From a virus, in the IMG/VR virus record IMGVR_UViG_3300028840_006907, positions 128,001 through 192,000 of that record: DNA of 64,000 nucleotides. One strand, given 5' to 3'. The notes beneath the pieces are model-generated. The model did no database searches and was not told where the DNA came from. It saw nothing but the letters and a program-made list of their open reading frames with translations. Positions 12,090 to 59,217 of this stretch are shown piece by piece. The translations under genes were made by a program, and so were the position numbers. Numbering within the stretch: position 1 is the stretch's first letter; every line of letters starts with the position of its first letter.

Positions 12090-13297
12090 GGTTTTTTACA
12101 GAAATGATAAAGTTTACGTTTTTCTGGAAAAGATTTACCTATCCGGGATTCTCCTAATAACTTATAATAATTAAATCCGACATCTCTGAAAATAGTTACA
12201 ACATCTCCGTCCGAGTCATGAGGCTCAAGAAATACATGTCGAAAAAGTGATAAATATTTAAGTAGTCTCTTTTTCTTTTTAATCCATCGTAAAAAACTGA
12301 AACAAAAAACTACGTCATAATCATATCCAAGGATGTTTTCATATTCTGAATTATCAAGATCTATTTGAATAATTCTCATCTTATCAGTAGGAATTCGAAA
12401 AGCATTTTTTACTATCTGTGTAGCTTGTAGATGAACCGAATTAAAATCAATTGCAGTAGCTGAATCTATCCCACAATATTTGAAGAGATAGGCAGGGACA
12501 AGTCCCATACAGGTACCTAGATCAAGTACTTTGAGCCCTTCCCAGCAAATTTCATTTTTAAATTTAGTCCATCTTAAATTCCAATTTCTTTCCCCTTCAT
12601 AATACTTCCCATTTATGGTAACGTTATAATAGGGTTTAAAATTCATACCACCCGTGGAATAAGACCAGGCTTTTTCTATAAGAGGAATATCGATTCCAGA
12701 ACGTTCGATAGTAATTGTTTCATTATATAAATTCTTTAGAAATTCATAATAGTCAACTGGGATGCATTGTAAGTGGTATAAAGGGATCTTTATAAAATCT
12801 CTGATATTTGCTATTGATTCAAGATCGATTATACCGTATTCATATCCATTATCAGTTACATTTGATTGGACTAAGTCATAAAAGAAGAACCCAGTTTTTC
12901 GGGCATTTTCGGTTAAAGTTTTAAAGAATCGTTTATACTTGTCGTTCTGTTTATTTACATTTTCAAAAGTACTAAATTCATGCTTATTTTTATACCGTTG
13001 AATATCCCCGTATAGTTTACCATCTATTTCCTTCATGGGACAAGAGACATATCCCATGCTGTACCCTATACAAGAGCCGTTATCAGAAAGAATAACTTCT
13101 TTGATGTCAGCAAGACCATTATAAAATCCTGCATTTACAGCTTGTAGAAATAGACTTCCTATATGTCGTTCCCAAAGGACATAGTCTTCTTTCCAAAGTT
13201 TGTAATATGTTTTATTTAAAGGGTCGTAAAATAATCTGTTTTCTTTTACAATTTCTAGTGCACAGAAGTCAATAGTATCTATATATGTAAATTTCAT
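12086..13297 (-). CDS. protein with C-terminal class I SAM-dependent methyltransferase-like domain
   Basis: VLDLGTCMGLVPAYL (motif I-like), IIQIDLD, DVVFCFSFL in translation. Confidence 0.4.
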   Translation of the reverse strand: MKFTYIDTIDFCALEIVKENRLFYDPLNKTYYKLWKEDYVLWERHIGSLFLQAVNAGFYNGLADIKEVILSDNGSCIGYSMGYVSCPMKEIDGKLYGDIQRYKNKHEFSTFENVNKQNDKYKRFFKTLTENARKTGFFFYDLVQSNVTDNGYEYGIIDLESIANIRDFIKIPLYHLQCIPVDYYEFLKNLYNETITIERSGIDIPLIEKAWSYSTGGMNFKPYYNVTINGKYYEGERNWNLRWTKFKNEICWEGLKVLDLGTCMGLVPAYLFKYCGIDSATAIDFNSVHLQATQIVKNAFRIPTDKMRIIQIDLDNSEYENILGYDYDVVFCFSFLRWIKKKKRLLKYLSLFRHVFLEPHDSDGDVVTIFRDVGFNYYKLLGESRIGKSFPEKRKLYHFCKKP

Positions 13298-13306
13298 TAA
13301 TTCTCC

Positions 13307-13804
13307 TTAATCTGATATAAGAATAAATTCACTTTCATGAACATTAAATTTGTCAGGATCCCATGTTGATACGATAATTTGGATTAATTCATTGGCTTTG
13401 TTTTTTGTCGCATCAATTCCTTGAAGACCGCATTTTACATTATTTTTAATATTACTAGCACCTGAAATTGTGACCATATCATCATTTTTGGAAATTGTAT
13501 TTAAGATACGGCCCATTGTATCCATGGAAAGAAGTTGTACATCTTTAAAGATAAAACGAAATAGAGAATATTTTTTTTCTTCGTAATGTCTTTTCTGTAT
13601 ATCAGGCCAACAAATATTATGGAATTTTTTAATTTCTTTTTTAATACTGTTTATGTCTTCAATCACTTCTTTCCATTCATTAGAGATGGTATAATTAGGG
13701 ATAGAAATTTCATGAGCCGTTTCAATTCCGGCTTCAATTAGTAAAGTCGTTCTTAATATTCTTGTTTTCTGATAATATTCGAGATAATTTTTTATTTGAC
13801 CCAT
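13307..13804 (-). CDS. hypothetical protein
   Basis: ORF track; GAGGA upstream of ATG. Confidence 0.4.
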   Translation of the reverse strand: MGQIKNYLEYYQKTRILRTTLLIEAGIETAHEISIPNYTISNEWKEVIEDINSIKKEIKKFHNICWPDIQKRHYEEKKYSLFRFIFKDVQLLSMDTMGRILNTISKNDDMVTISGASNIKNNVKCGLQGIDATKNKANELIQIIVSTWDPDKFNVHESEFILISD

Positions 13805-14084
13805 TTTTTATTTCCTCTTCTTTTTTCTTAATATCAAATGAAATCATCCCTATTATATAAATTATAAAAGTTGCAGTAAAAATTATAATAGGAGGTAAGA
13901 TTTTAAACCCTAACCATAGGATAATACTGACAACATAAATAATAATAATAATAATCCATGTAATAATGAATCTGTTAGGTGGCTCATAAAAACATTTCAA
14001 TTCTTCATAAGTACTATTTTTCATATGGTAATTTTTTCTCCCACTGCTTTCCACAAATTTTACATTCCATAGTGACTTTACCAT
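13734..14084 (-). CDS. hypothetical membrane protein (start uncertain)
   Basis: ORF track; hydrophobic segments IITWIIIIIIYVVSIILWLGF; overlaps both neighbours by about 70 nt. Confidence 0.25.
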   Translation of the reverse strand: MVKSLWNVKFVESSGRKNYHMKNSTYEELKCFYEPPNRFIITWIIIIIIYVVSIILWLGFKILPPIIIFTATFIIYIIGMISFDIKKKEEEIKNGSNKKLSRILSENKNIKNDFTN

Positions 14085-21115: not shown

Positions 21116-21189
21116 GCGCCTGAGGCTCTGAGGTGAGCAACTTGGACTCTAAATCCAAGTTTTTCAGGGTTCGACTCCCTACAGGCGCA
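21116..21189 (+). tRNA. putative amber suppressor tRNA (anticodon CTA)
   Basis: Acceptor GCGCCTG/CAGGCGC, A73, D-stem GCTC/GAGC, anticodon arm ACTTGGA-CTCTAAA-TCCAAGT (loop has U33, CUA, A37), T-loop TTCGACT; non-canonical 7 bp anticodon stem or 3 nt D/anticodon linker and short D-loop. Confidence 0.5.
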
Positions 21190-23726: not shown

Positions 23727-24029
23727 TTATAATATTTCTTTCACTTTGTTTTTTAATGTATCACATTTAGGATCAAATTCTGGCTCTTTTCCATCGTTCC
23801 ATGGTGACTTAATCCAGAAAAAGCATGAGTCAACACGACCCACTCTGATGTCTCCATTCATGTAATCCCTTTGTCCTTTAAAATAAGCCCTCTCAATGGC
23901 TTTAAAGTCGGTAGTGGCCTCTATACTAATGTATTGTATTTTATTGCTCTCAGGGGCAAATAACCGCCATGAGATAAGGAATAGTAAGTAAGCTCCTATT
24001 AAAATTATAAAACTATTAATTTTAAACAT
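23727..24029 (-). CDS. hypothetical membrane-anchored protein
   Basis: N-terminal hydrophobic segment FIILIGAYLLFLISW; stop TAA directly abuts downstream ATG. Confidence 0.4.
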   Translation of the reverse strand: MFKINSFIILIGAYLLFLISWRLFAPESNKIQYISIEATTDFKAIERAYFKGQRDYMNGDIRVGRVDSCFFWIKSPWNDGKEPEFDPKCDTLKNKVKEIL

Positions 24030-24897
24030 ATAAATTGTTCTCTTGTATAATACCAGCTATTAATGTGAGAAAAGGAGACTCCCTAAGATACTTTTCCCGA
24101 TCCTCCTTTAATTCTTTTCTGATATCTGTAGAGGATATCTTTGGTATTTTATTACCAGCATCAAAAAACTTATGTGGTTCTTTCATATACCAATTCACAT
24201 TTGGATCGCGCTTTTCTCCTTGTCTAGATACTACAATGAATGGTATCAATTTTTCAAGGTGTTCATAGTTAACCCATTTATCAAATGTATTGGCATTATC
24301 AAGTCCAATGACATAATTGAATCGGTATTCGTTTTTGGCAAAATCCTCTTCCATAAATTTATTAAGGAAATAATATGTCTCTCCAGCTAGTTCGTGAACA
24401 ATTTCATAATCGCATACTTTCATTCTCTTATCTACCTGTACATATTCTCGACACATGGCTAGCCGTAGTGATGCAGGAGCCATTTCTTTTCCATATAAAT
24501 GTCTGTAGCAGGGGATGTACCAAACTTCATCGAATAACCCTGCTTCATCGAGTAAGAATTTTCCTATAGCAAGATGGCCAGGATGGATGGGATCAAAAGC
24601 ACCCCCGATGAGCGCAACTGATACTTTCCTGCCAAGTTTACGGTATAAAGATCGGCTATTAATTTTGGTGATGTTCATTTCAACCAATTCATTAAAATCA
24701 TAACCGGCTTCATTAATCCATTGTATCAGTGTACCAAGTAGATCGCTCGTTTCATCTTTTAATCCCGTCATGGTCCTGGCTCTTGTCAATTCAAATGCTT
24801 CTTTAAGGATATCATTCAATCTGATATCAGTAGGAGTATTTCCAAAAGCTTCTGAATACGTTTTATTGATATTATTTAATAAATCTGATAAATTCAT
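24022..24897 (-). CDS. nadD: nicotinate/nicotinamide mononucleotide adenylyltransferase (NadD/NMNAT-like) with N-terminal extension
   Basis: GGAFDPIHPGHL (HxGH nucleotidyltransferase motif) and ISSTDIR near the C-terminus; about 100 aa N-terminal helical extension of unknown function. Confidence 0.6.
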   Translation of the reverse strand: MNLSDLLNNINKTYSEAFGNTPTDIRLNDILKEAFELTRARTMTGLKDETSDLLGTLIQWINEAGYDFNELVEMNITKINSRSLYRKLGRKVSVALIGGAFDPIHPGHLAIGKFLLDEAGLFDEVWYIPCYRHLYGKEMAPASLRLAMCREYVQVDKRMKVCDYEIVHELAGETYYFLNKFMEEDFAKNEYRFNYVIGLDNANTFDKWVNYEHLEKLIPFIVVSRQGEKRDPNVNWYMKEPHKFFDAGNKIPKISSTDIRKELKEDREKYLRESPFLTLIAGIIQENNLYV

Positions 24898-25078
24898 TTT
24901 TCAATTTCTTTTTAGGTAAATTTTTTATTATACAATCAATACAAATATCTTTACTTTTCCACTGCCCATTTTCTATAGTTCTTAATACCACCCTATAACT
25001 TTTATCTCTAATAAAGAGCCTGCTATCGTCAATATCCATTTGTTTTTTGCATATATCACATATTGTAATTTTAGCCAT
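24872..25078 (-). CDS. small zinc-ribbon protein
   Basis: CDICKK...CIDCIIK. Confidence 0.35.
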   Translation of the reverse strand: MAKITICDICKKQMDIDDSRLFIRDKSYRVVLRTIENGQWKSKDICIDCIIKNLPKKKLKNEFIRFIK

Positions 25079-25095: not shown

Positions 25096-25887
25096 TTATA
25101 TATCTAAATGGCAAATACGAGGCATTTCCATTTTATGAGCATTCTTTTCATGTCGTTCTAGATATAATTCAAGAACTTTCATTTTTCTTTTTTCTATTGT
25201 TAACATAGATTTCATCGCTTCAAGTCCTTTGATAGTTTTTAAACCACCTAATTTTTTACAAAAATCCATAGCCCATTCCAATTCAGAATATGTAGCTCCA
25301 ATCTGATCTTCATCAGTTCTGCCATCTTCCCATAATCCATCAGTAGGTTTTGCTGTTAAAATATCTGAGTTCACTCCAAGATAGGCTCCCATACCATATA
25401 CCTCAGATTTGACTAGCTCTCCTATTGGACTTATATCAACACCACCATCACCGAATTTTGTAAAGAAACCAATTCCGAAATCTTCAACCATATTCCCAGT
25501 ACCAACAACATAATAATTATGGGTATTTGCGATAGCATAAAGAGCTACCATTCGAAGACGGGATCTGGTATTAACCATGGCAAATTCATTGTAATAATTA
25601 CTATGATTAAAATTATTAAAGACAACTGAAAGATCTTCCGTATGACTGGTAACATTGGTATAGTCTTTTTTTAATTTTTCAACATGTGCTTCTGCTCTGG
25701 GAAGAATATCTTGATTTATTGGCATATGGGCACATATAACAGGTTTATAAGTTCTGGCACATAAATTTGATACAACTGCTGAGTCAATTCCACCTGAAAC
25801 TCCAACTACACAGCCATCTACATGGGATTCCTTCATGTCTCTAATAATCCAATTTACAATATGATCTGAGACTTTTTTATAGTCCAA
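25096..25887 (-). CDS. nadE: NH3-dependent NAD+ synthetase
   Basis: PP-loop GVSGGIDS near N-terminus; length 263 aa typical of NadE. Confidence 0.65.
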   Translation of the reverse strand: MDYKKVSDHIVNWIIRDMKESHVDGCVVGVSGGIDSAVVSNLCARTYKPVICAHMPINQDILPRAEAHVEKLKKDYTNVTSHTEDLSVVFNNFNHSNYYNEFAMVNTRSRLRMVALYAIANTHNYYVVGTGNMVEDFGIGFFTKFGDGGVDISPIGELVKSEVYGMGAYLGVNSDILTAKPTDGLWEDGRTDEDQIGATYSELEWAMDFCKKLGGLKTIKGLEAMKSMLTIEKRKMKVLELYLERHEKNAHKMEMPRICHLDI

Positions 25888-25899
25888 ATTTATCCTCCT

Positions 25900-27624
25900 T
25901 TAATTCATGGCAATTGAGTATATTTTTTTATTGTCAACAAATAACACTTTCATATGTTCATGGTATAATCGCATAGATACATTAATCGGTGTATTCGTAA
26001 TATCCTTACTTCCTTTATTATTTTTAAATAGAGACATTTTATCATTATCGACAGAGATGCACATTCCAGTAGGTAATGTAATAAAATTAACTGGATGGTA
26101 ATCAATCATATCTTCCTGTTTAATATCATAGCTAGTATGGGTTTTATCAAAACAAATTGTATATTTAAAATAACTTCCCTGTTTTTCTGTGACCACTATA
26201 CAGATTCCTTTATCATACCGGGCATCAATGATTCTTTGGCCGTCCAATTCTTTTACATAAGTATTAATACATTTCCCTCTTTCGAAAGGAATAGCTAATC
26301 GTATCTTTGTGAAATCATCCTGTACAATAACACCTCGGAAAGACTTATATGATTTGCTTATTCTACATACAGTTTTAGTCGTATGAATAACTCTCTGGAA
26401 TTTTTCAAAATGATTCTCTATCAATCTTCCATTATTAATGGTGTAAATATACCCATTATACCCCATTATGTCTTCAGCTTTGATGTCGGATATTGATTTA
26501 TTATTTAAATCAAAGAACTCAGCTTTTAAATTCTTGAAATAAACTATTAAGGGATCCGCTCCATAAGCTTCACACATGCCTACTATGGTTGATTTTAAAG
26601 GTTTATGGAACTTAACCACTTTATCTTTATTCTGGTCATATATGGCTTTAGAAGTTATCACAAAGCGTTTATCATTAAAGAAGAAGATATTCCGAATCGG
26701 TTCATTTACTTCGAATACTTTTTCTACTATGAAATCACCTCTACTAGTTATAGTTCTGGCAACTGCTGCTACAACCACGACCTCGTCCGGTAATGGCGGG
26801 ATGGATCTCTCATTATTTTTAAATTCTGATACATACCATTCAAAATGTTTTTTAGGGATCACAGAATAATCTTGGCACATGGCCGGTAATGGCTTTGCTC
26901 CTTTATCAAAATTTGAGACTCCATCATCCATCCTTTTAATCCATTGTTTCGGTTTATAATCGATATGTCTACTTTTGTAAGGGTGAATACCCAGATACAT
27001 TTGATAAGTTACGACACCCCAGGAGAACCAGTCAGAGTACTCAGTAAATTGAGCATTCTTAACCTGTCGATCTCGAACACTATCCATAAGAGCATCTGCT
27101 GGGAAGCTTTTTGTTTTCCAGGCATCCACATCAATGTGATAAACGGTCTTTAAATCACCGCTAAGAAGGAAATTCATCTCATTATAATCAACTACTAGGA
27201 AGCCATTTTTATGGATGTATTGTAGGGCTTTCTGCATTTTAAGAACTAGGTCAGCTATATCTGTTGGACTTAAATGTTTATTGTCTCTGAAAGTCTTAGT
27301 AAATACTTGGCAGAGAAATTCAACTCCATCAACATATCTCATTGTAAACCCAATGGGTGTGTGGTTCCTCACTTCATATAAAGGTTCTATGGGTGACAGG
27401 ATATCATCTCGTTTTAATTCGGTCAATTCGTGTATTTTTGCTTCTGGTATCATATTTTTAGTATCATGATAAATTTTATATGCAATCCCATTTAGATAAA
27501 AAACTGTTCCAAAACCACCAGAAGCTTTATAATTATCATCAGTCAAAGTAACAATTTCTTTTGTTGTCTGAACTTTGAATGACTTCTTTATTATCGGGTT
27601 CATTTTTGTTTTCGGTAAAATCAT
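25900..27624 (-). CDS. Ser/Thr protein kinase-like protein with large C-terminal domain
   Basis: Gly-rich loop GGFGTVF, lysine in IAYKIY, catalytic-loop-like HKNGFLVVDYNEMNFLL, DVDAW, SDWFSWGVVTY; about 330 aa C-terminal region unassigned. Confidence 0.55.
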   Translation of the reverse strand: MILPKTKMNPIIKKSFKVQTTKEIVTLTDDNYKASGGFGTVFYLNGIAYKIYHDTKNMIPEAKIHELTELKRDDILSPIEPLYEVRNHTPIGFTMRYVDGVEFLCQVFTKTFRDNKHLSPTDIADLVLKMQKALQYIHKNGFLVVDYNEMNFLLSGDLKTVYHIDVDAWKTKSFPADALMDSVRDRQVKNAQFTEYSDWFSWGVVTYQMYLGIHPYKSRHIDYKPKQWIKRMDDGVSNFDKGAKPLPAMCQDYSVIPKKHFEWYVSEFKNNERSIPPLPDEVVVVAAVARTITSRGDFIVEKVFEVNEPIRNIFFFNDKRFVITSKAIYDQNKDKVVKFHKPLKSTIVGMCEAYGADPLIVYFKNLKAEFFDLNNKSISDIKAEDIMGYNGYIYTINNGRLIENHFEKFQRVIHTTKTVCRISKSYKSFRGVIVQDDFTKIRLAIPFERGKCINTYVKELDGQRIIDARYDKGICIVVTEKQGSYFKYTICFDKTHTSYDIKQEDMIDYHPVNFITLPTGMCISVDNDKMSLFKNNKGSKDITNTPINVSMRLYHEHMKVLFVDNKKIYSIAMN

Positions 27625-28487
27625 TAATATTCCTCATTTAAATAAATAGTAGCAGTACCAACGTCATCATAATGATGCCAATTATGTTTTTTAACTTTCT
27701 TACCAAAAAAGATCATGCGCTTTTTTACAAATTCACCGGTAGTGTTTTTAAATCCAATAAATTCGGGTATTGTAATATCTAATCCTATATCTTTTTTATA
27801 ACTATCTCTGTAGGTTGATATACCATCTGTACATATTGTAACAGATAAGAGTTTATCCTTCATAATATTGGAAATTTCTTCGGAATAGATTGTATCAAAA
27901 GGTAATGAAGATTCAAGAGGATTTTCTAGCCCCTTTTCTCCTGACAAAGTAATAATTTCCCGAAAGCATTGAGGATTATCTTCACCTTTAATAGCACAAT
28001 TTTTTAAATAGACTGTTCTATCACTTATTAGATAAAATGGGGCATTTAAGGAATAATCTATTTTCATTATTAGCTGATAATTACCGCCATCTTCTTTTCT
28101 ATAATTAGCTGTAATGACACCATCACCCCATGCAAATACCAATACTCTTGAAGACAATCTTATAGTTATTAATAATGTGGCTTCCAAAGCCTTAGGAGTA
28201 ATGGGGTATATCTTTCTTATTTCATCAGCTCTTTTGTGAATGCCGTTTCCGAGATAAAATGAGAGTTCTTTCAGATTTAATCGTTCGAATAATCCAGTTT
28301 GGATACAAAATTCAATATTATATTTAGCAACATGACATAATATTTGAGCACCTACTTCAGAATGATCCGCAGAAGAACATCCATCTGCAACGATGCCATA
28401 CTCAATTCCTTTAAAAGAGCCACTTAATGCATAGTCTTGACAGACTAAATGAGTGCTTCCTTTTTCATAATATGAGTCACAGCTCAC
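27624..28487 (-). CDS. PP2C-family protein phosphatase-like protein
   Basis: YGIVADGCSS, VFAWGDGVI, TICTDGIST, DDVGTATIYL resemble PP2C metal-binding motifs; GTG start behind AAAGGAGG. Confidence 0.5.
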   Translation of the reverse strand: MSCDSYYEKGSTHLVCQDYALSGSFKGIEYGIVADGCSSADHSEVGAQILCHVAKYNIEFCIQTGLFERLNLKELSFYLGNGIHKRADEIRKIYPITPKALEATLLITIRLSSRVLVFAWGDGVITANYRKEDGGNYQLIMKIDYSLNAPFYLISDRTVYLKNCAIKGEDNPQCFREIITLSGEKGLENPLESSLPFDTIYSEEISNIMKDKLLSVTICTDGISTYRDSYKKDIGLDITIPEFIGFKNTTGEFVKKRMIFFGKKVKKHNWHHYDDVGTATIYLNEEY

Positions 28488-28546
28488 AATTACCTCCTTT
28501 TAGTAAGCACAGAAGGCTCCATTACAGAGCCTTCCTGCAAAAATTC

Positions 28547-29314
28547 CTAGTTAAATTTGAAATCTTTAATTGGTTGTGAAGGTTGTCCGGTGCCGAGGGC
28601 ATCTGACTGTGAGCTAACACTCTGACTCATAAACTGGGCTAGTTTAGCTAATTTTGATTCAGAAACATCACCCATTGATATATATTCATCAAGTCCAGCT
28701 TCTTCTTTGAAATCCGTAAGTAATTTCTTTAAATCTTTTCTACCATCATTAACACCAATAAGAATGGTACGAACTGATTCCATCGCTTCATCTTCATCAT
28801 TCATACTGTCTAATGTTTCTTTTATCATTTGTGGAGTAACACCGAATTCGGGGCAATTATCTTCACCATCAGTAATTATGAAAACCATTCCATTAGCATT
28901 TACGATCCTTTCAGAATTATAGAGCTTATTTATATAATCTCTCATGACGTCCAAACCACAAAGAGTCGCTTGAAAAAGATTTGTAGCATTCGCTGGAAAG
29001 ATCACATCGTCGTAATTATCTAGTTCAATATCACTCAGAAGCATCCATCCATGAATTTCCTGGATACCTCCATTATTAAAAGCGATAACACGTAATAAAA
29101 GATTCAAAGCTCGTGGGGAGCCTTTACATGACCCTACACATGCTTTTATCATTTTTTCCAGACCTGTTTTAAACCCTTTCACTGAATAGGTTTTATCAAC
29201 GATTATAGTGACTGCTGTATATTCTGTAGCTCCAAGTCTATCAACTTTAACTTTTGTATAATCGAATTTATGGAGAGATACATCGGAATCACTTACATTC
29301 ATAAACTTAGGCAT
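28547..29314 (-). CDS. von Willebrand factor A (vWA) domain protein, TerY-like
   Basis: VFIITDGEDN and vWA-like alternation of hydrophobic strands; first gene of the vWA / PP2C / kinase triad. Confidence 0.5.
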   Translation of the reverse strand: MPKFMNVSDSDVSLHKFDYTKVKVDRLGATEYTAVTIIVDKTYSVKGFKTGLEKMIKACVGSCKGSPRALNLLLRVIAFNNGGIQEIHGWMLLSDIELDNYDDVIFPANATNLFQATLCGLDVMRDYINKLYNSERIVNANGMVFIITDGEDNCPEFGVTPQMIKETLDSMNDEDEAMESVRTILIGVNDGRKDLKKLLTDFKEEAGLDEYISMGDVSESKLAKLAQFMSQSVSSQSDALGTGQPSQPIKDFKFN

Positions 29315-29326
29315 AAGTTATCCTTT

Positions 29327-30154
29327 CTAGAAAAAGTCCACTGTTGTAGCAACCTGCATACCATAATCATCTGCAGTATACTTGTTAATAAAGTCTTCAC
29401 CATTTTGCTCACATCCAGGTACACTTGAAGTAGCATCTTTGAGTAAAACGAATTTTTTAACTTGGTCGGCACCTAAATATTCAAAGATATCTCTGAATGT
29501 AAAGGAATAGCAGTGTGAAAGAGCTTCACCAGCTCCAAGAATTATATCATATTCCTTGATTACATTGATAAAATCTTCGTTTAATCTGGTTCCTTCATCC
29601 TCTGGGTCAATCACGTCAGCCACTAATGCTGAATAGTGCTCAGTGAAAGGATTACTCCCTTTGGTGGTACGGGGAGCAATACCGTAATAAGTGGCTTCCC
29701 ATTCAGAGACCGCATTGAGAAATTCAGGCTCTAACATTTGTCCATCACTTCCGATAATACAATGTTCAGGCCATATCATTAATTGATATCTGTTATTAGC
29801 CTTTAATTGTTTCAAGTAGTCAACATAACGCTCTTGAAAGCCTGGATTGAAAGCACGGTATTCTCCATCTAAGACCATTTCTAAAGTTAAGTACGTAGGT
29901 ACAGTATTCCCTTTGTGAAGGAAAATAGGTGTGGGGTGGTTTCCCTCTCTGTCAATCCAAGATCGGCTGTGAGCCACGTGGAGCTTATAATGTGAGTCCA
30001 TCGTGATTTGGATTTCATCAATATCACCCCCGAATTTTCGAATCATTTTTGAAAGTCTTGCCATGTCTTCAACGGCACCAGGAACAGTGAGAGTTCCCCT
30101 TGTAAAGTCTTTTTGAGGGTCAATTACCACAAGGCACACTTTAGGTTTTTCCAT
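29327..30154 (-). CDS. pncA: isochorismatase-fold hydrolase, nicotinamidase (PncA)-like
   Basis: VIDPQKDF (catalytic Asp region), WPEHC (nicotinamidase-type motif), candidate catalytic Cys in ALSHCY. Confidence 0.5.
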   Translation of the reverse strand: MEKPKVCLVVIDPQKDFTRGTLTVPGAVEDMARLSKMIRKFGGDIDEIQITMDSHYKLHVAHSRSWIDREGNHPTPIFLHKGNTVPTYLTLEMVLDGEYRAFNPGFQERYVDYLKQLKANNRYQLMIWPEHCIIGSDGQMLEPEFLNAVSEWEATYYGIAPRTTKGSNPFTEHYSALVADVIDPEDEGTRLNEDFINVIKEYDIILGAGEALSHCYSFTFRDIFEYLGADQVKKFVLLKDATSSVPGCEQNGEDFINKYTADDYGMQVATTVDFF

Positions 30155-30201: not shown

Positions 30202-30444
30202 TTAAAGCAACCCTTTTATATCAGCCCTTTCAATATCAGTTCTGTTAAAAAAGTTCTTATTTCCTTTTTTTCTAGGTTCTGGTAATACCCCGCATTTTAT
30301 ACGACGGTATATAGTTTGTTTGGATATATTATATTCAGTACAAATATCTCTCAAACTAATTTCATCTCTATGATGTTTGTAAAGTATTTTAGCTACTTCT
30401 TCTGCTATAGCTTTTGCTAATTTTTTAATATCTGCATCATCCAT
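30202..30444 (-). CDS. small HTH DNA-binding protein
   Basis: ISLRDICTEYNISKQTIYRRIKCG helix-turn-helix-like segment. Confidence 0.4.
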   Translation of the reverse strand: MDDADIKKLAKAIAEEVAKILYKHHRDEISLRDICTEYNISKQTIYRRIKCGVLPEPRKKGNKNFFNRTDIERADIKGLL

Positions 30445-30451
30445 AATATAT

Positions 30452-31624
30452 TTATATCATTAAATCTTTTTTACAATGTACAATCATATCTTTATTACCA
30501 GTGTTCTTTCCTTCGTCATCTGATAACTTGACTGTGTCAATCCATCTGCCATTTATCATACAGGCTATCATTTTAATAACAATATTCAATGGTATGACAT
30601 CTACGTCATTTGTAAACCAGGTTCCAATTCCATATGCATCTCTGATCAAATTGATGCAAGCTTTATGGATAGATTTCACTTTATCTATACTGTTAATAGC
30701 ATCAGAGAATACCAATGTTTTAAGCATCGGATCAATTCTTAATTTTTGGTATTTACTTACTGATTTAGTAATGAAATCAAAAGGTGAACCACTATCTTGC
30801 CGGAGACCATCAAAAAGTTTCGCAAAAAATGTATTGAATGTTTTTAGGAATACATCAGTAGTAAATGTATCTGGAAGAGCAATTCCAAGATCTCCTTGAA
30901 ATATATCAGACCATATTTTCAGAGCCATCTCATTAGCCATACGAAATCCATACATAGCTGCATGGAATTGATACCATTCATGAGCTTTTGTTCCTATGGG
31001 AGTTAAATTGTATTTCTTTGCTAGATAAACATTACTAGGTCCAGAGAAACAACTACCTAGATATTGCTTTGCATCACGAACTACTTCATCATGATTCTTT
31101 AGAGAGTATCTTCTACGAGTACCAAATTCAGCGATGGGTACTCCGATTTCTTTAAGAGCCATAAATTTCAGACGATTTCTTTCTTTACGTTCCTTACGAA
31201 TCATCTTTGTCTTACCAGTTTTCTCAAAATAAAGTTGACTGATAGTAGCCATCAAAGGTACTTCCCAAAGAATCTTTCGGTACCAGGGTCCTATATACTT
31301 ACAATGAAAATTAGATCCTTCTTGTGTTAATATTATCTCATCTGGGTTATACCGGTACCCACTAAGAAGATCGATATAGGCAGGATTTAAATAATAACAT
31401 TTTTCTTTAAGAAAGTCTATATCATCTTTGCTTAATGTAAAACCACGAAATGTGTCTATAATTCTCCTTAATTCATCGGCAAAGCCATCTGGAAACTCTC
31501 TACCATCACGGTTTATAAATTGGTACATAGCGAGAGCATTGGGGTATTTCTGACATGCCCCACACTGCATAGTGAATTTATACACATCATTATCGAGTAT
31601 ACCAGCTACGTACTCATTCTCCAT
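30452..31624 (-). CDS. pncB: nicotinate phosphoribosyltransferase (PncB-like)
   Basis: DNDVYKFTM, EFGTRRRYS, GPSNV...GTKAHEW match the NAPRTase signature pattern. Confidence 0.65.
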   Translation of the reverse strand: MENEYVAGILDNDVYKFTMQCGACQKYPNALAMYQFINRDGREFPDGFADELRRIIDTFRGFTLSKDDIDFLKEKCYYLNPAYIDLLSGYRYNPDEIILTQEGSNFHCKYIGPWYRKILWEVPLMATISQLYFEKTGKTKMIRKERKERNRLKFMALKEIGVPIAEFGTRRRYSLKNHDEVVRDAKQYLGSCFSGPSNVYLAKKYNLTPIGTKAHEWYQFHAAMYGFRMANEMALKIWSDIFQGDLGIALPDTFTTDVFLKTFNTFFAKLFDGLRQDSGSPFDFITKSVSKYQKLRIDPMLKTLVFSDAINSIDKVKSIHKACINLIRDAYGIGTWFTNDVDVIPLNIVIKMIACMINGRWIDTVKLSDDEGKNTGNKDMIVHCKKDLMI

Positions 31625-31712: not shown

Positions 31713-31943
31713 TTGGAAACTGAAAAACATATAAAAACGATTATAGCTGAGATTTTATGCCTTAAAGAAGATGAAATAATACCGCAAGCATCTATCGTAG
31801 ATGATCTTGGTGCAGATTCACTAGATGAAATAGAAATTTTAATGGCTTTAGAGGATGAACTTGATATAGATATTCCTGAAAATGAAGCTCAGAGAATGAA
31901 AACAGTTAAGGATATCTTAAAATATATTGAAGAAATCACCTAA
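31713..31943 (+). CDS. acyl carrier protein
   Basis: DLGADSLDEIE phosphopantetheine-attachment motif; 76 aa acidic protein; lone + strand gene within a minus-strand block. Confidence 0.6.
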   Translation: METEKHIKTIIAEILCLKEDEIIPQASIVDDLGADSLDEIEILMALEDELDIDIPENEAQRMKTVKDILKYIEEIT

Positions 31944-32799: not shown

Positions 32800-33726
32800 T
32801 TACCTTTTATGTGTGAGTAATTTTACTTTTAGATTTTTAATATTTTCGTTTTTATTATCACTACTGATGATCTGTGATAATATATCGACAATACCTGGAT
32901 TCTCCAGTTCCTGAACCATCATTTTACTTATCATACCATCAATAGAGATACAGCTATTGATTGTCATTTTTTTCATATTCTTGATATTATTCGCGTTGAC
33001 CACTTCAACGATGGTATTTATTTCACGTTTTATCTCTTCTTCAATGGATTCAATAAGGGTACCTATGACAAAGGTGCGCTCATCAGATCTAGGATCATGG
33101 GGATCATCTGCTATTACAAAAACAGCCTTACATTCTTTGACATTTGCTTTATGCAGAATATCCAGATCAGTAGGCATTCCCCTAATGAAAGAAATTTCAG
33201 TTTTAATATCTTCCGGAAGCTCTTCTAATTTTTCAGTTATTAGTACCATTTTACATTTAGAATATTTGGAAGTATTTTTTATTTCGTGAATGAAATATTT
33301 AATTTTCTTTTCATTGGGATATCCACAAAGGATAACATGATTTTTAAAGGCTATATCCATTAAGCCTCTCCTTTTCCTATTAATAAGATCGATTAATATA
33401 CTGGTTATAACACCGATTAAAGAGCCTATAATACCTATCCCAAGTATCATACAGGCATATGAAATGACAAACCGTCCTATAAAGGTTTTTGCATAAAAAT
33501 CCCCGTATCCTACGGTAGTCATTGTTACAATAGCCCACCAGATTGAATCCAGTAAAGAAATGTCTTGAGAGTCCCTTTCAACAAAATAGAAAGTAACTCC
33601 GAAGAATAGATTTAATACGGCAGCCAAACCTATTACGTATATTAAATCTCTTTTAAAGAGACTCCCAAAACGTAAAAATAATCTGAATATATTCATAAAT
33701 TTTATAATAGACCGTGGGAGAAACAA
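32800..33726 (-). CDS. potassium channel with RCK/TrkA-like cytoplasmic domain
   Basis: Selectivity filter TVGYGD flanked by two hydrophobic helices; VILCGYPNEKK Rossmann-like start of an RCK domain. Confidence 0.6.
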   Translation of the reverse strand: MFLPRSIIKFMNIFRLFLRFGSLFKRDLIYVIGLAAVLNLFFGVTFYFVERDSQDISLLDSIWWAIVTMTTVGYGDFYAKTFIGRFVISYACMILGIGIIGSLIGVITSILIDLINRKRRGLMDIAFKNHVILCGYPNEKKIKYFIHEIKNTSKYSKCKMVLITEKLEELPEDIKTEISFIRGMPTDLDILHKANVKECKAVFVIADDPHDPRSDERTFVIGTLIESIEEEIKREINTIVEVVNANNIKNMKKMTINSCISIDGMISKMMVQELENPGIVDILSQIISSDNKNENIKNLKVKLLTHKR

Positions 33727-33800
33727 CTTTAACTTTATATTTTTAATATTTAGCTTCGTTTATACGAAGAAGGGTAGATCCCCCACGGCTATGTTATTGA

Positions 33801-34469
33801 TTATAAATCATCATACCCTGGTAGATCTTGGCCTAATGCTTTTTCTGTTTCAGCATCAAGACTACCAGTAGGATCGGCACTTTGTTCAACAAGAGCATCA
33901 GAAGCATCTAACTCAGCTTGCATTTTTGCTTCTCTTTCCTTGAATTTAGCAACTGCTGACATGGAACTATCAGTATTTATTGTAGCAATGGCATCATTGG
34001 ATTTTTTAACTTCTTCCATTGTCTTCATGCGATCTATCGCACGTTTCATCGTGTCCAAATTTCCAGATAATGTAGTTACATTGCTCTCTTGCTTTTTATA
34101 AATGTTTTGATACTGTTCAAGACTCTTTTCCAGTGTCTGTAATTCGTTATCAAGTTCTAATTTAATAGCATATTGTTGTTTAGCCAGATCTTCATGTCCC
34201 GCCGTTTTTAATTTTTTTACTTTATCTATGCGACTAACAATTTCTTCTTTTTTAGTACTCACTTTTCTCTGTAAGCCCATTATTGAAGCTTTAGTATTTG
34301 CTAATCCAACTCTTGCTTTTTGAAAGTCCTCTTGTGCCTCTTCAATGTCTTGTTTAGCAAAAGCAATTCGATTTCCATCTTCAATTTTTTCTTCCACTTC
34401 GTTCATCTTTGCTTTACCAAATTTGAATATTGTTCCAAATAAACCCATTATCTTATCCTCCAATTTCAC
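33801..34469 (-). CDS. pspA: PspA/IM30-family protein
   Basis: N-terminus MGLFGTIFKFGKAKMNEVEEKIED matches the PspA/Vipp1 start pattern; remainder coiled-coil. Confidence 0.5.
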   Translation of the reverse strand: MKLEDKIMGLFGTIFKFGKAKMNEVEEKIEDGNRIAFAKQDIEEAQEDFQKARVGLANTKASIMGLQRKVSTKKEEIVSRIDKVKKLKTAGHEDLAKQQYAIKLELDNELQTLEKSLEQYQNIYKKQESNVTTLSGNLDTMKRAIDRMKTMEEVKKSNDAIATINTDSSMSAVAKFKEREAKMQAELDASDALVEQSADPTGSLDAETEKALGQDLPGYDDL

Positions 34470-34857
34470 TAATTTTTTTGATATTTTGACTAACTGTTAA
34501 GACCATCGATACAATTGACGCCTGCAATTCGTTAGAATCAAGGTTTGCGATTTCCAAGACATCTTTAAAAATGATTTTACCTTTACTTGTGTCCCATCCG
34601 AACCCACCGTGAACTGCTTCATCAGCATTTAGCTTTAATAGCAACTCACCAAATTCTTGTGATACTCGTTCGGCTGGACAAATATCCATGAGGAAAATTA
34701 TTGTTGTTTCCTCAACGTCAATAATTACTTCGAGCCCGGTATCGGGTTCGGTTACCAAGAAGATATCATCGGTTTTTTGTTCCGTATCGAAATCTCCTAA
34801 TTCTGTCAACATTTCGAAAACTTTAATTCCGTTTTCAATTTCTTTTTGACTTGCCAT
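34453..34857 (-). CDS. YbjN-like hypothetical protein
   Basis: Weak resemblance only; acidic 134 aa protein. Confidence 0.3.
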   Translation of the reverse strand: MASQKEIENGIKVFEMLTELGDFDTEQKTDDIFLVTEPDTGLEVIIDVEETTIIFLMDICPAERVSQEFGELLLKLNADEAVHGGFGWDTSKGKIIFKDVLEIANLDSNELQASIVSMVLTVSQNIKKISEIGG

Positions 34858-34888
34858 GATTTTTTATTCCTTTTTTATTTGTTATTTG

Positions 34889-35455
34889 TTATCTCATTGA
34901 AAGAATACTTACTTCGTGTTCTTTCACTTGACATCCATACCATATTTCTAGATATTCGTCATCATCACTACCTGACCATTCCAGAAATGCTATTGGATTA
35001 TTAATTTCACTATTCGTACCATATTCACAGATATGTAATGGCTCTCCTTCTTCTCCATTAACTTCAATTTCAACACCGAAAATAGGGGAAGATTTTTGAA
35101 TCCATGTTATATCTTCACCATCAAGTGTAATCTCGAAGTCATGTTCAAAATCTTCTCCATCTTCATCAATAATAGCTCCATAATAATCTGAAGCATCACC
35201 TTCCTGATCCAGATAGAATAATAAGATGTCAGTTACATTATCTACTTTCCGGATCATCAGCATATATTTACGTTTATCCGGAGCTATGACGATATAAGCA
35301 GTATAAGTGAAAAGATCACTTGGTTCGTGATAAATACGTACCTCTTCGATTTTGAAATCCACTCCATCACTAGCTTTAAAAGTAGCAATGGTTTGTAAAT
35401 CGGAGAGGGTCATAATATCACCTTCTCTGTGACCTAGTAATTCTTTTATTTCCAT
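34889..35455 (-). CDS. hypothetical acidic protein
   Basis: ORF track. Confidence 0.4.
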   Translation of the reverse strand: MEIKELLGHREGDIMTLSDLQTIATFKASDGVDFKIEEVRIYHEPSDLFTYTAYIVIAPDKRKYMLMIRKVDNVTDILLFYLDQEGDASDYYGAIIDEDGEDFEHDFEITLDGEDITWIQKSSPIFGVEIEVNGEEGEPLHICEYGTNSEINNPIAFLEWSGSDDDEYLEIWYGCQVKEHEVSILSMR

Positions 35456-35456
35456 C

Positions 35457-36296
35457 TTAACTACCGCCCTTCATTTTAGTTATAATTACGCCAACTATTA
35501 CAGCGACAACTATAAATCCAATAAAAAGAAGAATGTACAGAACTATTTTTGCATCATTTTCATTTGTAGGTTTTCGATCTACATGTACGACTTGTGGTGT
35601 TTGTACATGTTGTACACGAGGAGTAGTTAAAGCAGTTAAAACGAGGGCATCAACAAGAAAATCATCATCGTCATAGACAACAAAAACCCCTGAGCTATTA
35701 CGATAACCGTATCTGCCATTATAAAAGTCAGTTTCATACCGTTGCCCGTTAATTTCACGGTATCTAGGAACATGATCTGGCATTACGTCAGGTTCTTTAT
35801 CATATGTTTGATTACTTAAAGATTTTCGATAAGCTGTTTCAGCTTCTTTTTTAGATTTAAAAGTTTTTCCTTTTAAAGCCTTGTGTTTTGACAGCTTTTT
35901 ATCAACAGCACTTTTCTGGGAAGCATTAAGTTTAGGAACAGTTGTAGTCTGATTTTTACTAGTTCCATCCTTTCCCTTTATAGTACTTGAACCGGTAGGT
36001 CGTGTTAAAGATGACTTGGTATTAGTACCTGTATTATTTTTTAATTCTGCAGCTTTTTTCTCAGCTTCTAATCGCTTTTTCTTTTCTGCTGCGGTTTCAA
36101 CTTTCTTCTTATCATCTTTTTTCTTTACTTTTGATGTCCCGGTAGGACGGGTAACTTGTTTCTTTTCTTGTTTCTTTTTGCTATCGCCACTCTTGCTACT
36201 ACCGGATTTTGATTTAGATTTTGCAGCATAAACATCATCAATTCCGGCACCAGAAACCAAAAGTGAAAGAAATAGAATTATAAAAATTCTTTTCAT
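35457..36296 (-). CDS. Lys-rich protein with N-terminal signal-like and C-terminal transmembrane segments
   Basis: N-terminal MKRIFIILFLSLLVSGAG, K/S/T-rich low-complexity middle, C-terminal IVLYILLFIGFIVVAVIVGVII. Confidence 0.45.
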   Translation of the reverse strand: MKRIFIILFLSLLVSGAGIDDVYAAKSKSKSGSSKSGDSKKKQEKKQVTRPTGTSKVKKKDDKKKVETAAEKKKRLEAEKKAAELKNNTGTNTKSSLTRPTGSSTIKGKDGTSKNQTTTVPKLNASQKSAVDKKLSKHKALKGKTFKSKKEAETAYRKSLSNQTYDKEPDVMPDHVPRYREINGQRYETDFYNGRYGYRNSSGVFVVYDDDDFLVDALVLTALTTPRVQHVQTPQVVHVDRKPTNENDAKIVLYILLFIGFIVVAVIVGVIITKMKGGS

Positions 36297-36304
36297 AATA
36301 ACCT

Positions 36305-36338
36305 TCCATTTAAAAGTGATGGGGGCTAATGAGCCCCC
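36305..36338 (-). terminator. terminator-like hairpin (minus strand)
   Basis: GGGGGCT-AATG-AGCCCCC stem-loop followed on the minus strand by a U-rich stretch, in the 47 nt gap after the flotillin gene. Confidence 0.35.
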
Positions 36339-36343
36339 TTTGC

Positions 36344-38209
36344 TTATGACGCTTCGACTTCTTCTATGAATTCTTGCTCTGCAGGTTCTGGAACTGGTTC
36401 TGTTACCTGTTCTTCGACCTGGGGAGATTCTTTAGGTTTTGTGGAAGTCATCATATTAGACACATTCTTCACTACATTTGGAAGATTATCACCTAATCCT
36501 GCTTCTTTTAATAATTGATCTACAACAGGAGCCTGAGCGCGATATCCAAGAAGTTGATCCAATAAAGATTGAGTAGAAAAACCTCCTGCAGACATTTTTG
36601 ACCCACCGTTACCATTACTATGGCCATTGCTACCGGTCAAACCTGATACGTTGATAACTTTGAAAGCTTCAATTTTTTCAAGGGGTTTTACACTGGATTC
36701 AATTACTGCTGATATGTGTTCAATTATTTGGAGTTTTACACGCATATCAACAATGTCTTTAGAGAGCCTGTTTTCAGCTTCATTGAGTTTTTCCTGACCT
36801 TCAGCTTCGACTTCGTATTTTCTTTCATCGGCATCAGCTTGAATTTTGATAGCCTCAGCTTTGGCTTTGGCTTCAATTTTGATAGCCTCAGCACGATCTT
36901 GAGCTGCTTCTTTTTCAGCCTGTGCAAGAACTTTAATTTTGGCTGCATCTGATCCGGCTACTTCTTCAGCTCTAATAATTGTAATTTCTCTGGCACGATT
37001 AGCAATTTCTTTTTCACGAGCGGTGGTTACTTTTTCCTCTGCAGAAATAGCGAGTGCTCTAGCTTCATTTGCTTCCTGATCAGCCAAAGAGGTTTCTTTA
37101 GATTTATTAGCAACTTCAATATCTCTTTCCTGTTCAGCAAGTTTTATTGCTTTCTGTTTTTCGATGGTAGCTGACTCTACTGCTTGTTCTTTAACAATAG
37201 TAGCTGATTCAATTGCTTGTTCTTTTTCAATATTGGCTTCTTGTAAAGCTTTTTCTTTTATAATATTTGCTTCGGCAATGGCTTGTTCTTTTCTAATATT
37301 CTGTTCTTCAAGAGCTTTGGTAGTTTCGATTGTTTTCTTTTTAACTTCTTTTTCAGATTCTATCCTTGCTTCTTGGGCTATCTTATTTTGTTCAGCATTA
37401 AATTTTTCTTTTGTGGCATTTTCTTCTGCTGTCCTAGTAGCAATTTCACGTTCTTGTTCAAGTCTAGAATACTCTTTTTCTTTATTAATTTTTAAAGTCT
37501 GTTGTTCAGCTTGAAGATTTTTTGTTTCAATTTTTACTAGATTATCTCTTTCAATCTCATTACGTTCTTTTCTACGCTCTTCGATGATTCTAGTTAATGC
37601 TGTCAATCCCTCAGCATCAAAAGCATTATTCTCATTGAAGTGCTCTCTACTGGTTTGATCAAAACCTGTAAGTGACACAGTTTCAAGCTCTAAGCCATTT
37701 TTCTTAAGGTCTTCCAGAACATTGTTTTGGACTTTTTGCACAAAATCAGCACGTTGCTCATGCAGTTCTCTCATTTGCATTTGAGCAGCAACAGCTCTTA
37801 AGGCGTCAACGAATTTACCTTCAATAAGTTCACGTAGTTTCTCTGGGTCAAGAGTGCGGTCACCAAGAGTTTGAGCGGCATTTGCTATGGAATCAGCTTC
37901 TGGTTGTACCCGCATATAAAACTCTACAAGAACGTCAACTCTCATACGATCTTTTGTAATTAATGCGTCCTTTTCATTTCTTCTTACCGGTAATTTTAAA
38001 GTACTAAGTTTTACCCAGGTTATTTGATGAAGTACAGGTAATACTACTGCTCCACCTTCTTTTATAACTTTTTTCTTGCCCATACCAGTACGGACAAAAG
38101 CCATATCAGATGAAGCTTTTACGTACATCCTAGCAATAATTAATCCTATAACAATTAGTGCCACTAGGATTATACCTGCCATAATTAAAATAGGCATAAG
38201 GTTTTCCAT
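36344..38209 (-). CDS. flotillin-like SPFH/band-7 protein
   Basis: N-terminal TM helix, SPFH-like region, then long E/A/K coiled-coil with repeats (EANIIKEKALQEANIEKEQAIESATIVKEQAVESATIEKQKAI). Confidence 0.55.
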   Translation of the reverse strand: MENLMPILIMAGIILVALIVIGLIIARMYVKASSDMAFVRTGMGKKKVIKEGGAVVLPVLHQITWVKLSTLKLPVRRNEKDALITKDRMRVDVLVEFYMRVQPEADSIANAAQTLGDRTLDPEKLRELIEGKFVDALRAVAAQMQMRELHEQRADFVQKVQNNVLEDLKKNGLELETVSLTGFDQTSREHFNENNAFDAEGLTALTRIIEERRKERNEIERDNLVKIETKNLQAEQQTLKINKEKEYSRLEQEREIATRTAEENATKEKFNAEQNKIAQEARIESEKEVKKKTIETTKALEEQNIRKEQAIAEANIIKEKALQEANIEKEQAIESATIVKEQAVESATIEKQKAIKLAEQERDIEVANKSKETSLADQEANEARALAISAEEKVTTAREKEIANRAREITIIRAEEVAGSDAAKIKVLAQAEKEAAQDRAEAIKIEAKAKAEAIKIQADADERKYEVEAEGQEKLNEAENRLSKDIVDMRVKLQIIEHISAVIESSVKPLEKIEAFKVINVSGLTGSNGHSNGNGGSKMSAGGFSTQSLLDQLLGYRAQAPVVDQLLKEAGLGDNLPNVVKNVSNMMTSTKPKESPQVEEQVTEPVPEPAEQEFIEEVEAS

Positions 38210-38244
38210 TTGTTAAATCCCTTTCAGTTGATTTTTTAATTTAA

Positions 38245-38949
38245 TTAAAGTTCATTTTCGATACATCTAAATGTACCGTCTTTCTCCTTTCGAATTATTA
38301 AGACCTCATCACCAGCTTTAAATTCAGCGTCATCTTCTTCGGGTTCCAGGTAAACAAGATGTTGCTGTCCGTGTTTATCTTTAAGCCGTGCTTCAGCTCT
38401 AAGACCTCTTTTTGTACTACCAACAGTAATAGTTGCAAGGGTTCCAATAAATTCATCAGATGAGACCGCAGTGCTCTCATCTTTGAATGCAATATGACTG
38501 CATAATTTTGATATATAACGTGATATCAAAATCGAAAGAACAAAAGAGGCTGGCACAATTATAAACCATGGAAAGTAATGACTAGTATATTTTTTTATAT
38601 AAAATTGACCTATTAGACCTATACCGGAGAATGAAGATAAAAATATGATGAAGTAAACGAGCATCGGTACTTTTCCTTTCACCCAAATAAATAGCTTGGA
38701 TAAAGCAGGAACACTTGCTCCTTCTCCTACATCAGCTTCTACATCTACATCTGCGTCAGCATCTATGTCAATTTCAATTTCAGGTACGTCTATATCTGGT
38801 ACATCTACGTCAGCATCAAAATCTGGAATTAATCCATCTAGGAAACCAGAGATCACTCCGGATGAGAGTACTTCTAATAAAAAAATTAATACTAACAATA
38901 CTAATGCTACTGAAAAGGCCGTATTTTCAGTAGAAAGAAAGAGTTCCAT
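38245..38949 (-). CDS. NfeD-like membrane protein
   Basis: TM segments, acidic DxDxD linker, C-terminal OB-like tail; trimmed to ATG behind AAGGAAG; lies next to the flotillin gene. Confidence 0.45.
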   Translation of the reverse strand: MELFLSTENTAFSVALVLLVLIFLLEVLSSGVISGFLDGLIPDFDADVDVPDIDVPEIEIDIDADADVDVEADVGEGASVPALSKLFIWVKGKVPMLVYFIIFLSSFSGIGLIGQFYIKKYTSHYFPWFIIVPASFVLSILISRYISKLCSHIAFKDESTAVSSDEFIGTLATITVGSTKRGLRAEARLKDKHGQQHLVYLEPEEDDAEFKAGDEVLIIRKEKDGTFRCIENEL

Positions 38950-39076
38950 TTTACTTCCTTCTTTGTAATTTGTAAATCTTATGGTTTTGGTTAATAGTGT
39001 ATTGAGACTTTTATGGTTAAAGGATTGGTTATTGCTATATTGTCCTCCTTTCAATTATTTAATTGAATATATTTAT

Positions 39077-58938: not shown

Positions 58939-58941
58939 TTT

Positions 58942-59202: not shown

Positions 59203-59217
59203 AACATTTACCTCATT

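Follow-up and report, generated by a model that had tools for sequence, protein, structure and literature searches.

A vWA-PP2C-kinase triad joined to a nicotinamidase-like gene in the NAD+ salvage operon of a huge phage

Why should a phage carry a protein kinase, a protein phosphatase and a vWA protein in the middle of an operon for the synthesis of nicotinamide adenine dinucleotide (NAD+)? The question is raised by positions 128,001-192,000 of IMG/VR record IMGVR_UViG_3300028840_006907, a stretch of 64,000 nt which was analysed as a whole and is referred to here as the window. Three adjacent minus-strand genes in it specify a vWA protein, a PP2C-type Ser/Thr phosphatase and a Hanks-type Ser/Thr kinase, and an earlier prediction made from the sequence alone (the original prediction) had taken them for a phage-borne triad of the TerY-P type, placed within a cluster of NAD+ salvage genes. 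This type of triad was reportedly described by Anantharaman, Iyer and Aravind in 2012. Comparison with related loci revealed that the conserved unit is a cassette of four genes, the fourth being that of a nicotinamidase-like protein. We propose, with moderate confidence, that this cassette is a phospho-switch acting on nicotinamidase-gated NAD+ salvage by the Preiss-Handler route.

A four-gene cassette in phages and bacteria

All related loci were retrieved by means of the kinase, and comprised 82 viral loci, some of them on IMG/VR contigs as long as 548 kb, and 80 loci taken from cellular genome assemblies. The viral loci contained genes for the PP2C (81), the vWA protein (76) and the PncA-like protein (74), as well as pncB (35), nadE (25) and nadD (16); the corresponding cellular figures were 71 for vWA, 68 for pncA-like, 67 for PP2C, 24 for pncB, 7 for nadE and 4 for nadD. 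To remove redundancy, loci whose kinases were more than 90% identical were merged, and at least 4.5 kb of upstream sequence was required, which left 117 loci. The order pncA-like, vWA, PP2C, kinase was kept on one strand in 101 of these (86%; 58 of 65 viral and 43 of 52 cellular), down to kinase identities of approximately 26%. Within the cassette the pncA-like and vWA genes lie closest together, at a median distance of 22 nt; insertions between vWA and PP2C or between PP2C and kinase are present in approximately 37% of the loci. This fixed order and strand define the conserved unit as a four-gene cassette which includes the nicotinamidase. The triad does lie in an NAD+ cluster, as had been predicted, but it is not merely inserted between NAD+ genes, and the proposed link to NAD+ metabolism is strongly supported by the comparative genomics.

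Among the cellular carriers are Armatimonadota, with chromosomes of 3.8-6.2 Mb, Acidobacteriota and Patescibacteria, the last including a complete 0.99-Mb Nomurabacteria chromosome in which the cassette lies beside pncB and NrtR among housekeeping genes. Some of the metagenome-assembled contigs labelled as cellular may be mis-binned phage, which does not hold for the Mb-scale and complete chromosomes. In a neighbour-joining tree of the kinases the window kinase falls in a mostly viral clade, which lies between two large cellular clades. The description of the triad as phage-borne was thus correct for the window, but the triad is not specific to phages, since it also occurs in ordinary bacterial chromosomal contexts. 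Two other explanations were considered and rejected: the cellular copies are not prophage-borne, their neighbours being ordinary cellular genes and not prophage genes, and the genes are not chance open reading frames (ORFs) or pseudogenes, as they belong to full-length families with invariant catalytic residues.

To survey the neighbourhood, every ORF in 164 loci was clustered without bias, and the cluster representatives were searched against Pfam. The recurrent neighbours were NrtR (73 loci), pncB (68), nadE (52), NADAR (24), ADP-ribosylglycohydrolase (ARH; 14) and WGR-PARP (11). Ter, restriction and CoCoNuT genes were not found among the recurrent neighbour clusters of these loci. NrtR, recognised by its Nudix and NrtR_WHD domains, is mostly encoded upstream of the pncA-like gene and in the same direction, at a median gap of about 440 nt; one bacterial-type contig carries the operon pncB - pncA-like - vWA - PP2C - kinase - NrtR. 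The surroundings of the cassette in the relatives are an NAD/ADP-ribose conflict region.

The neighbour types seen in individual loci include WGR-PARP-like ADP-ribosyltransferases, ADP-ribosylglycohydrolases, NADAR proteins and Thg1-like enzymes; examples of ADP-ribose neighbours are found in loci L017 (17677-18966), L093 (8846-9946), L072 (16236-16697) and L049 (14544-15365). A Capsulimonadaceae chromosome (L100, 3648-6650, minus strand) encodes, immediately upstream of the cassette, a 1000-amino acid protein with WGR and ATP-dependent DNA-ligase domains. In a 512-kb relative four extra small genes lie between the PP2C and kinase genes, and an 826-amino acid protein with a major-vault-protein shoulder domain (PF11978) is encoded near the NAD+ operon (coordinates of these observations in L001/L002: 4185-6665, minus strand, and 11703-13976, plus strand).

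The four proteins and the intercistronic hairpin

The first gene of the cassette (29327-30154, minus strand) specifies the nicotinamidase-like (PncA-like) protein. On its own the window protein falls under the Pfam and NCBIfam thresholds, and its assignment accordingly rests on the profile of its family (more than 1100 matches), which matches yeast Pnc1 (2h0r; 9e-11) and Mycobacterium tuberculosis PncA (3pl1; 1.1e-8). The catalytic triad, D12, K165 and C215, is invariant in 31 of 31 sequences, and in a HMMER alignment to 2h0r it is aligned with D8, K122 and C167 of Pnc1. The metal ligands D53 and H55 (DSH motif) and H131 (WPxHC motif) are likewise invariant and align with the Pnc1 motifs, so that all residues for nicotinamidase chemistry appear to be in place. 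The alignments also show that the family is longer than canonical PncA, with an insert between the metal-binding motifs.

The vWA protein (28547-29314, minus strand; 255 amino acids) is of the TerY/YegL type. Direct searches of Pfam, NCBIfam, PADLOC, PHROGs and PDB sequences with this protein were all empty, and its family profile had no match among PDB sequences. Its identity was established from three other sources: several of the more than 500 family members are labelled 'YegL' by the Joint Genome Institute, 10 of 40 members reach Pfam VWA, and the top PDB fold matches of its AlphaFold2 model (predicted local distance difference test score, pLDDT, 86.7) are all vWA domains. Alignment of the family profile to E. 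coli YegL with hhalign gave a probability of 83% (E-value=9e-6). The protein has a site resembling the metal ion-dependent adhesion site (MIDAS), consisting of D40-x-T42-x-S44, T111 and D149, in which D40, S44, T111 and D149 are invariant in the family; the family motif is DxTxS, with Thr in place of the first Ser of DxSxS. With this site intact the protein looks functionally competent. Its C-terminal tail is rich in Ser and Gln and contains the conserved residues S230, S232, S234, S235, S237 and S246.

The phosphatase gene (27624-28487, minus strand; 287 amino acids) has a GTG start, and its product, of the PP2C_2/PphC type, matches Pfam PP2C_2 at 4.5e-16. It had been called minimal in the original prediction, but is full-sized for the PP2C_2 family. 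D18, D35-G36, G121-D122-G123, D221-G222 and D274-D275 are invariant in 81 of 81 sequences; these include all of the metal-binding aspartates, and the enzyme looks catalytically competent. Its profile is related to E. coli PphC, also named YegK (87% probability, E-value=3.8e-6), although pairwise BLASTP gave no match between the two proteins. In two Armatimonadota loci, L087 (8059-9951, 631 codons between stops) and L105 (7783-9951, 723 codons), the vWA and PP2C are fused in frame. Such a single polypeptide is Rosetta-stone evidence for a joint action of the two proteins.

The kinase gene (25900-27624, minus strand) specifies 574 amino acids, of which residues 1 to about 285 form the Hanks-type Ser/Thr kinase domain (26770-27624; Pfam Pkinase, E-value=5.6e-9). 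All of the catalytic residues of Hanks kinases are present, and the enzyme looks catalytically competent. The profile comparison with E. coli YegI (97.8% probability, E-value=7e-13) extends into the helical region which follows the kinase domain. The remainder of the protein, residues about 290-574 (25903-26757, minus strand), is an all-beta domain. In the AlphaFold2 model residues 298-573 form 28 beta-strands in seven groups of four, with pLDDT mostly above 90, which is consistent with a seven-bladed propeller; fold prediction, which the original prediction had advised for this domain, thus yielded an all-beta model but no name for the fold, since the structure match lists are dominated by the kinase domain. 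The C-terminal domain has no Pfam match, no detected internal sequence repeat and no similarity to the C-terminus of YegI (0.1% probability). An exhaustive search with this domain alone against 1.8 billion representatives returned 738 clusters, and in every full-length match it occupies about residues 280-565 of a kinase of approximately 565 amino acids. By this search the domain is private to this kinase family, and it is a putative sensor or partner-binding domain.

The three genes lie where the original prediction had placed them and contain every motif that it quoted. Its assignments hold, by Pfam matches for the kinase and the phosphatase and by family and fold prediction for the vWA protein, and neither a failure of the domain searches for PP2C and kinase folds nor missing catalytic residues, which it had named as grounds for refutation, were encountered.

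The RNA hairpin reported between the vWA and PP2C genes is also real (28507-28538, minus strand). It has a 10-bp GC-rich stem (free energy -20.2 kcal/mol, z -3.24), lacks a U-tract, and lies directly 3' of the vWA stop codon and 5' of the PP2C Shine-Dalgarno sequence (AAGGAGG, 28494-28500; GTG at 28487). Of the vWA-PP2C spacers with a length of 25-200 nt, 45 non-identical ones were folded, and 35 of these had z <= -2 relative to shuffled sequences which preserve mononucleotide content only; the median z was -3.6. The spacers typically consist of one long perfect hairpin, in many cases followed by a U-tract as in a terminator; their sequence is not conserved. The hairpin thus keeps its position, and it marks off two halves of the cassette, nicotinamidase plus vWA and PP2C plus kinase. 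It looks like an attenuator or mRNA-stability element which would set a different dosage of the two halves.

The NAD+ operon and the phage that carries it

Read along the minus strand from 31624 to 24022, the operon consists of pncB, a small helix-turn-helix (HTH) gene, the pncA-like gene, the vWA gene, the hairpin, the PP2C and kinase genes, nadE, a 68-codon ORF and a nadD-like gene. Judged by homology, this one operon provides for the complete Preiss-Handler route, with all four steps between nicotinamide and NAD+. The product of pncB (30452-31624), nicotinate phosphoribosyltransferase, corresponds to step 2 (Pfam NAPRTase, 9.9e-50; NAPRTase_N, 1.7e-29). The nadD-like nucleotidyltransferase (24022-24897) is a candidate nicotinate mononucleotide adenylyltransferase for step 3; its CTP_transf_like domain (1.4e-17) spans residues 96-261 and is preceded by an N-terminal extension of about 90 amino acids. 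Step 4 is assigned to nadE (25096-25887; NAD_synthase, 2.6e-45), an NH3-dependent NAD+ synthetase gene with approximately 70% DNA identity to the nadE genes of cyanophages and pelagiphages.

Two small genes complete the operon. The 80-amino acid HTH protein encoded between pncB and the nicotinamidase gene (30202-30444; Pfam HTH_17, 6.3e-7) is a possible local regulator; it is not conserved among the related viral loci compared, and in many relatives NrtR is encoded in this neighbourhood in its place. The Cys-rich 68-amino acid ORF between nadE and nadD (24872-25078) is without a Pfam match and absent from the related viral and cellular loci compared. All of these genes are on the minus strand and closely packed: 12 nt separate the pncA-like stop from the vWA start, 59 nt including the hairpin separate vWA from PP2C, the kinase ATG overlaps the PP2C stop by 1 nt, and the kinase stop is followed after 12 nt by the nadE start. 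Terminator-like sites in the operon are not more frequent than in shuffled sequence. NrtR, NADAR, ARH, PARP and Thg1 were searched for within the window and none was found.

A membrane-stress block (32800-39054, minus strand) adjoins the operon and encodes a K+ channel with an RCK domain, PspA/IM30, a CesT_Tir_1 (YbjN-like) protein, two unknown ORFs, a flotillin/SPFH protein and a YqiJ (NfeD-like) protein; in relatives L001, L002 and L005 the genes for CesT, PspA and the K+ channel show synteny with the cassette. Divergent from pncB is a small acyl-carrier-protein-like gene (PP-binding; 31713-31943, plus strand), whose position is kept in the 512-kb relative.

The window derives from a huge phage, as is evident from its UvsX-like recombinase (6e-61), gp46/47-like nuclease subunits, clamp and 13 tRNAs, and from metagenomic contigs of 389-470 kb which carry identical genes. 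The UvsX-like, SbcC/SbcD-like (gp46/47) and clamp-like proteins form a T4-like recombination and replication module (57784-63538, minus strand). Among deposited phages no close relative of the window was found, and the kinase has only two carriers in GenBank, both uncultured huge phages. Twelve of the tRNA genes lie at 117-20339; the remaining one (21116-21189, plus strand) has the anticodon CTA of an amber suppressor and is called tRNA-Pyl by ARAGORN. TAG may thus be recoded in part of the genome; the ORFs of the cassette appear complete in the standard code. A NUMOD/I-HmuI-like homing endonuclease is encoded at 11274-12089 (minus strand).

Known triads and the possible role of the cassette

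The gene order of the cassette triad is that of E. coli yegL-pphC-(yegJ)-yegI, where vWA, PP2C and kinase genes likewise follow one another on one strand; the predicted agreement with the TerY-P order is borne out in this way. Profile comparisons link all three proteins to this prototype, equivalent MIDAS positions are present in YegL, and YegL, like the cassette vWA protein, has a Ser-rich C-terminal helix or tail. The kinases differ more. The C-terminus of YegI contains a CPWC zinc ribbon, two transmembrane segments and a coiled coil/helix-hairpin-helix region (10.1101/819920), whereas that of the cassette kinase is a soluble all-beta domain of about 285 amino acids; the catalytic-loop Asn, which YegI lacks (10.1101/819920), is retained in the cassette kinase. 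On these profile relationships the cassette triad is a distant branch of the TerY-P/YegL-PphC-YegI triads.

TerY-P has been described as a phosphorylation switch, and the described kinases carry at their C-terminus either a zinc ribbon (CoCoNuT and YegI types) or an OB-fold (defence type) (PMC11090510). The TerY-P defence system shares the three domain types of the cassette, but there the kinase is fused to an OB-fold and here to a family-specific beta-rich domain, and the window example is phage-encoded and lies inside a metabolic operon. The genomic partners differ as well, being Ter, restriction or CoCoNuT genes for TerY-P and a nicotinamidase with NAD/ADP-ribose genes for the cassette. The vWA and PP2C proteins did not match the PADLOC TerY-P models even at E <= 10, and the kinase weakly matched PD-T4-6 and mad6 only; these models are narrow, E. 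coli YegL being marginal against the TerY model (0.032) and PphC and YegI without a match, so the result is read only as excluding a close relative of the validated defence type. Of the likeness to TerY-P that had been predicted, distant relationship therefore stands and membership of the experimentally validated defence type does not.

Phage-encoded NAD+ synthesis has precedents. The NARP pathways of phages rebuild NAD+, two of them from nicotinamide, and have been proposed or shown to counter NAD+-depleting immunity; NARP1 consists of Adps and Namat, NARP2 of Nampt and Nmnat, and NARP3 of PnuC and a NadR-like protein (10.1101/2024.02.11.579819; PMC13464706). The window operon does not have this gene content but uses the deamidated Preiss-Handler route (PncA, PncB, NadD, NadE), and none of the three NARPs includes a kinase, phosphatase and vWA module. 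In NrtR-controlled bacterial NAD+ salvage operons pncA- and pncB-type genes stand beside the Nudix-WHD protein NrtR, as in many of the related loci, but the cassette has in addition a Ser/Thr phosphorylation triad, and the window has a small HTH protein instead of NrtR. In the searchable literature, which did not extend to the original 2012 TerY-P paper, no vWA-PP2C-kinase module joined to a nicotinamidase or to NAD+ salvage was found in either phages or bacteria.

A phospho-switch could operate as follows. The nicotinamidase and the vWA protein, made from adjacent cistrons and set apart from their regulators by the hairpin or attenuator, would form a working pair, in which the vWA protein would use its MIDAS to capture the nicotinamidase or another salvage enzyme and retain it, or else to activate it. 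With its beta-rich domain the kinase would recognise a signal or a partner, and it would then phosphorylate the pair, the Ser-rich C-terminal tail of the vWA protein being the obvious candidate target, and the PP2C would reset the switch. The deamidation of nicotinamide, and hence the flux through PncB, NadD and NadE to NAD+, would in this manner be gated post-translationally. In cells such a switch would add a second layer of control to the transcriptional one exerted by NrtR; its most likely use to the phage would be to rebuild NAD+ from nicotinamide freed by host NADase immunity, or to tune the NAD+ supply during a long infection.

Several points weigh against this proposal. We infer the interaction of the triad with the nicotinamidase from conserved gene order, and the counts are conditional on the kinase, through which the loci were retrieved. 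The beta-rich domain has neither an assigned signal nor a named fold, and as the window hairpin is without a U-tract, a part in attenuation or in the stability of the mRNA can only be guessed at. It is not obvious why a constitutive salvage enzyme should need so elaborate a control. For the E. coli relatives no substrates have been identified (10.1101/819920), so that no precedent ties this type of triad to metabolism, and validated TerY-P is a defence system (PMC11090510), which leaves room for a non-metabolic role.

A more specific form of the phospho-switch, which we regard as possible but rather unlikely, is that the cassette detects and answers the depletion of NAD+. The beta-rich domain would then sense the outcome of immune NAD+ cleavage, be it nicotinamide, ADP-ribose or the state of the nicotinamidase-vWA pair, and phosphorylation of the vWA tail would release or activate the nicotinamidase, so that NAD+ would be resynthesised only upon attack by NADase immunity.

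Phages carry defence systems against competitors, and the triad might be an autonomous immunity or superinfection-exclusion module of the TerY-P type that co-travels with NAD/ADP-ribose genes in a conflict island, with no direct coupling to the nicotinamidase. The neighbourhoods are rich in conflict-type genes (PARP-like, ARH, NADAR), the kinase weakly resembles the PD-T4-6 defence kinases, and TerY-P-like modules have been reported as stand-alone anti-phage systems (Gao et al. 2020, as cited in PMC11090510). Co-travel would not, however, lead one to expect that 86% of the loci, in phages as well as in several bacterial phyla, keep one order and one strand with a median nicotinamidase-vWA gap of 22 nt, nor that an operon should end in NrtR. 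Together with the lack of a PADLOC TerY-P match for any of the three proteins, the absence from the kinase of the domains known from described TerY-P kinases (OB-fold or zinc ribbon), and a Patescibacteria chromosome which has the cassette among housekeeping genes, this makes an autonomous module improbable.

We are equally doubtful that the cassette is primarily a sensor, in which the nicotinamidase-like and vWA proteins would detect or process a nicotinamide-containing molecule, either nicotinamide set free by the cleavage of NAD+ or a nicotinamide-bearing signal, and the kinase and phosphatase would relay this to transcription, host proteins or phage development, the resynthesis of NAD+ being secondary. 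The association with the ADP-ribose-sensing NrtR and with ADP-ribose-processing enzymes would fit such a function, as would the insert in the pncA-like family and its greater length relative to canonical PncA; furthermore, most cellular cassettes have no nadE (7 of 80) or nadD (4 of 80) nearby, so that the conserved core is the nicotinamidase and the signalling triad. Yet the residues for nicotinamidase chemistry are all invariant, pncB, whose product consumes that of the nicotinamidase, is among the three commonest neighbours after the cassette genes, the window phage has the complete Preiss-Handler route in a single operon, and the neighbourhood contains no conserved candidate for a downstream target.

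Phage Ser/Thr kinases which modify host proteins are known, and the kinase described here appears from its sequence to be catalytically intact, but it is very improbable that the kinase and phosphatase act on host proteins as a means of host takeover, with their position in the NAD+ operon reflecting shared expression timing only, since the same cassette and order occur in bacterial chromosomes, where takeover is meaningless, and the kinase always carries its private beta-rich domain and is nearly always accompanied by the PP2C (81 of 82 viral loci, 67 of 80 cellular ones).

The biochemical purpose of the TerY-P/YegL-PphC-YegI triads is unsolved, one subtype being anti-phage by an unexplained mechanism. 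The cassettes represent a large and coherent subfamily in which the triad has constant partners, namely an enzyme whose chemistry is known, the nicotinamidase, and a known regulon (NrtR, pncB, nadE, nadD and ADP-ribose-processing enzymes), and its target is therefore testable in vitro with four proteins. If the cassette does answer NAD+ depletion, it would provide the first physiological role for a triad of this type, whose function has been open since 2012, and a regulated fourth route of NAD+ reconstitution in huge phages. The depletion and reconstitution of NAD+ are a central theme of the conflict between phages and bacteria; a phospho-regulated, complete Preiss-Handler route in huge phages would, if true, be distinct from NARP1-3 and the first with a signalling layer. 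In the Patescibacteria, with their minimal metabolism, the cassette may matter to the NAD+ economy of reduced genomes.

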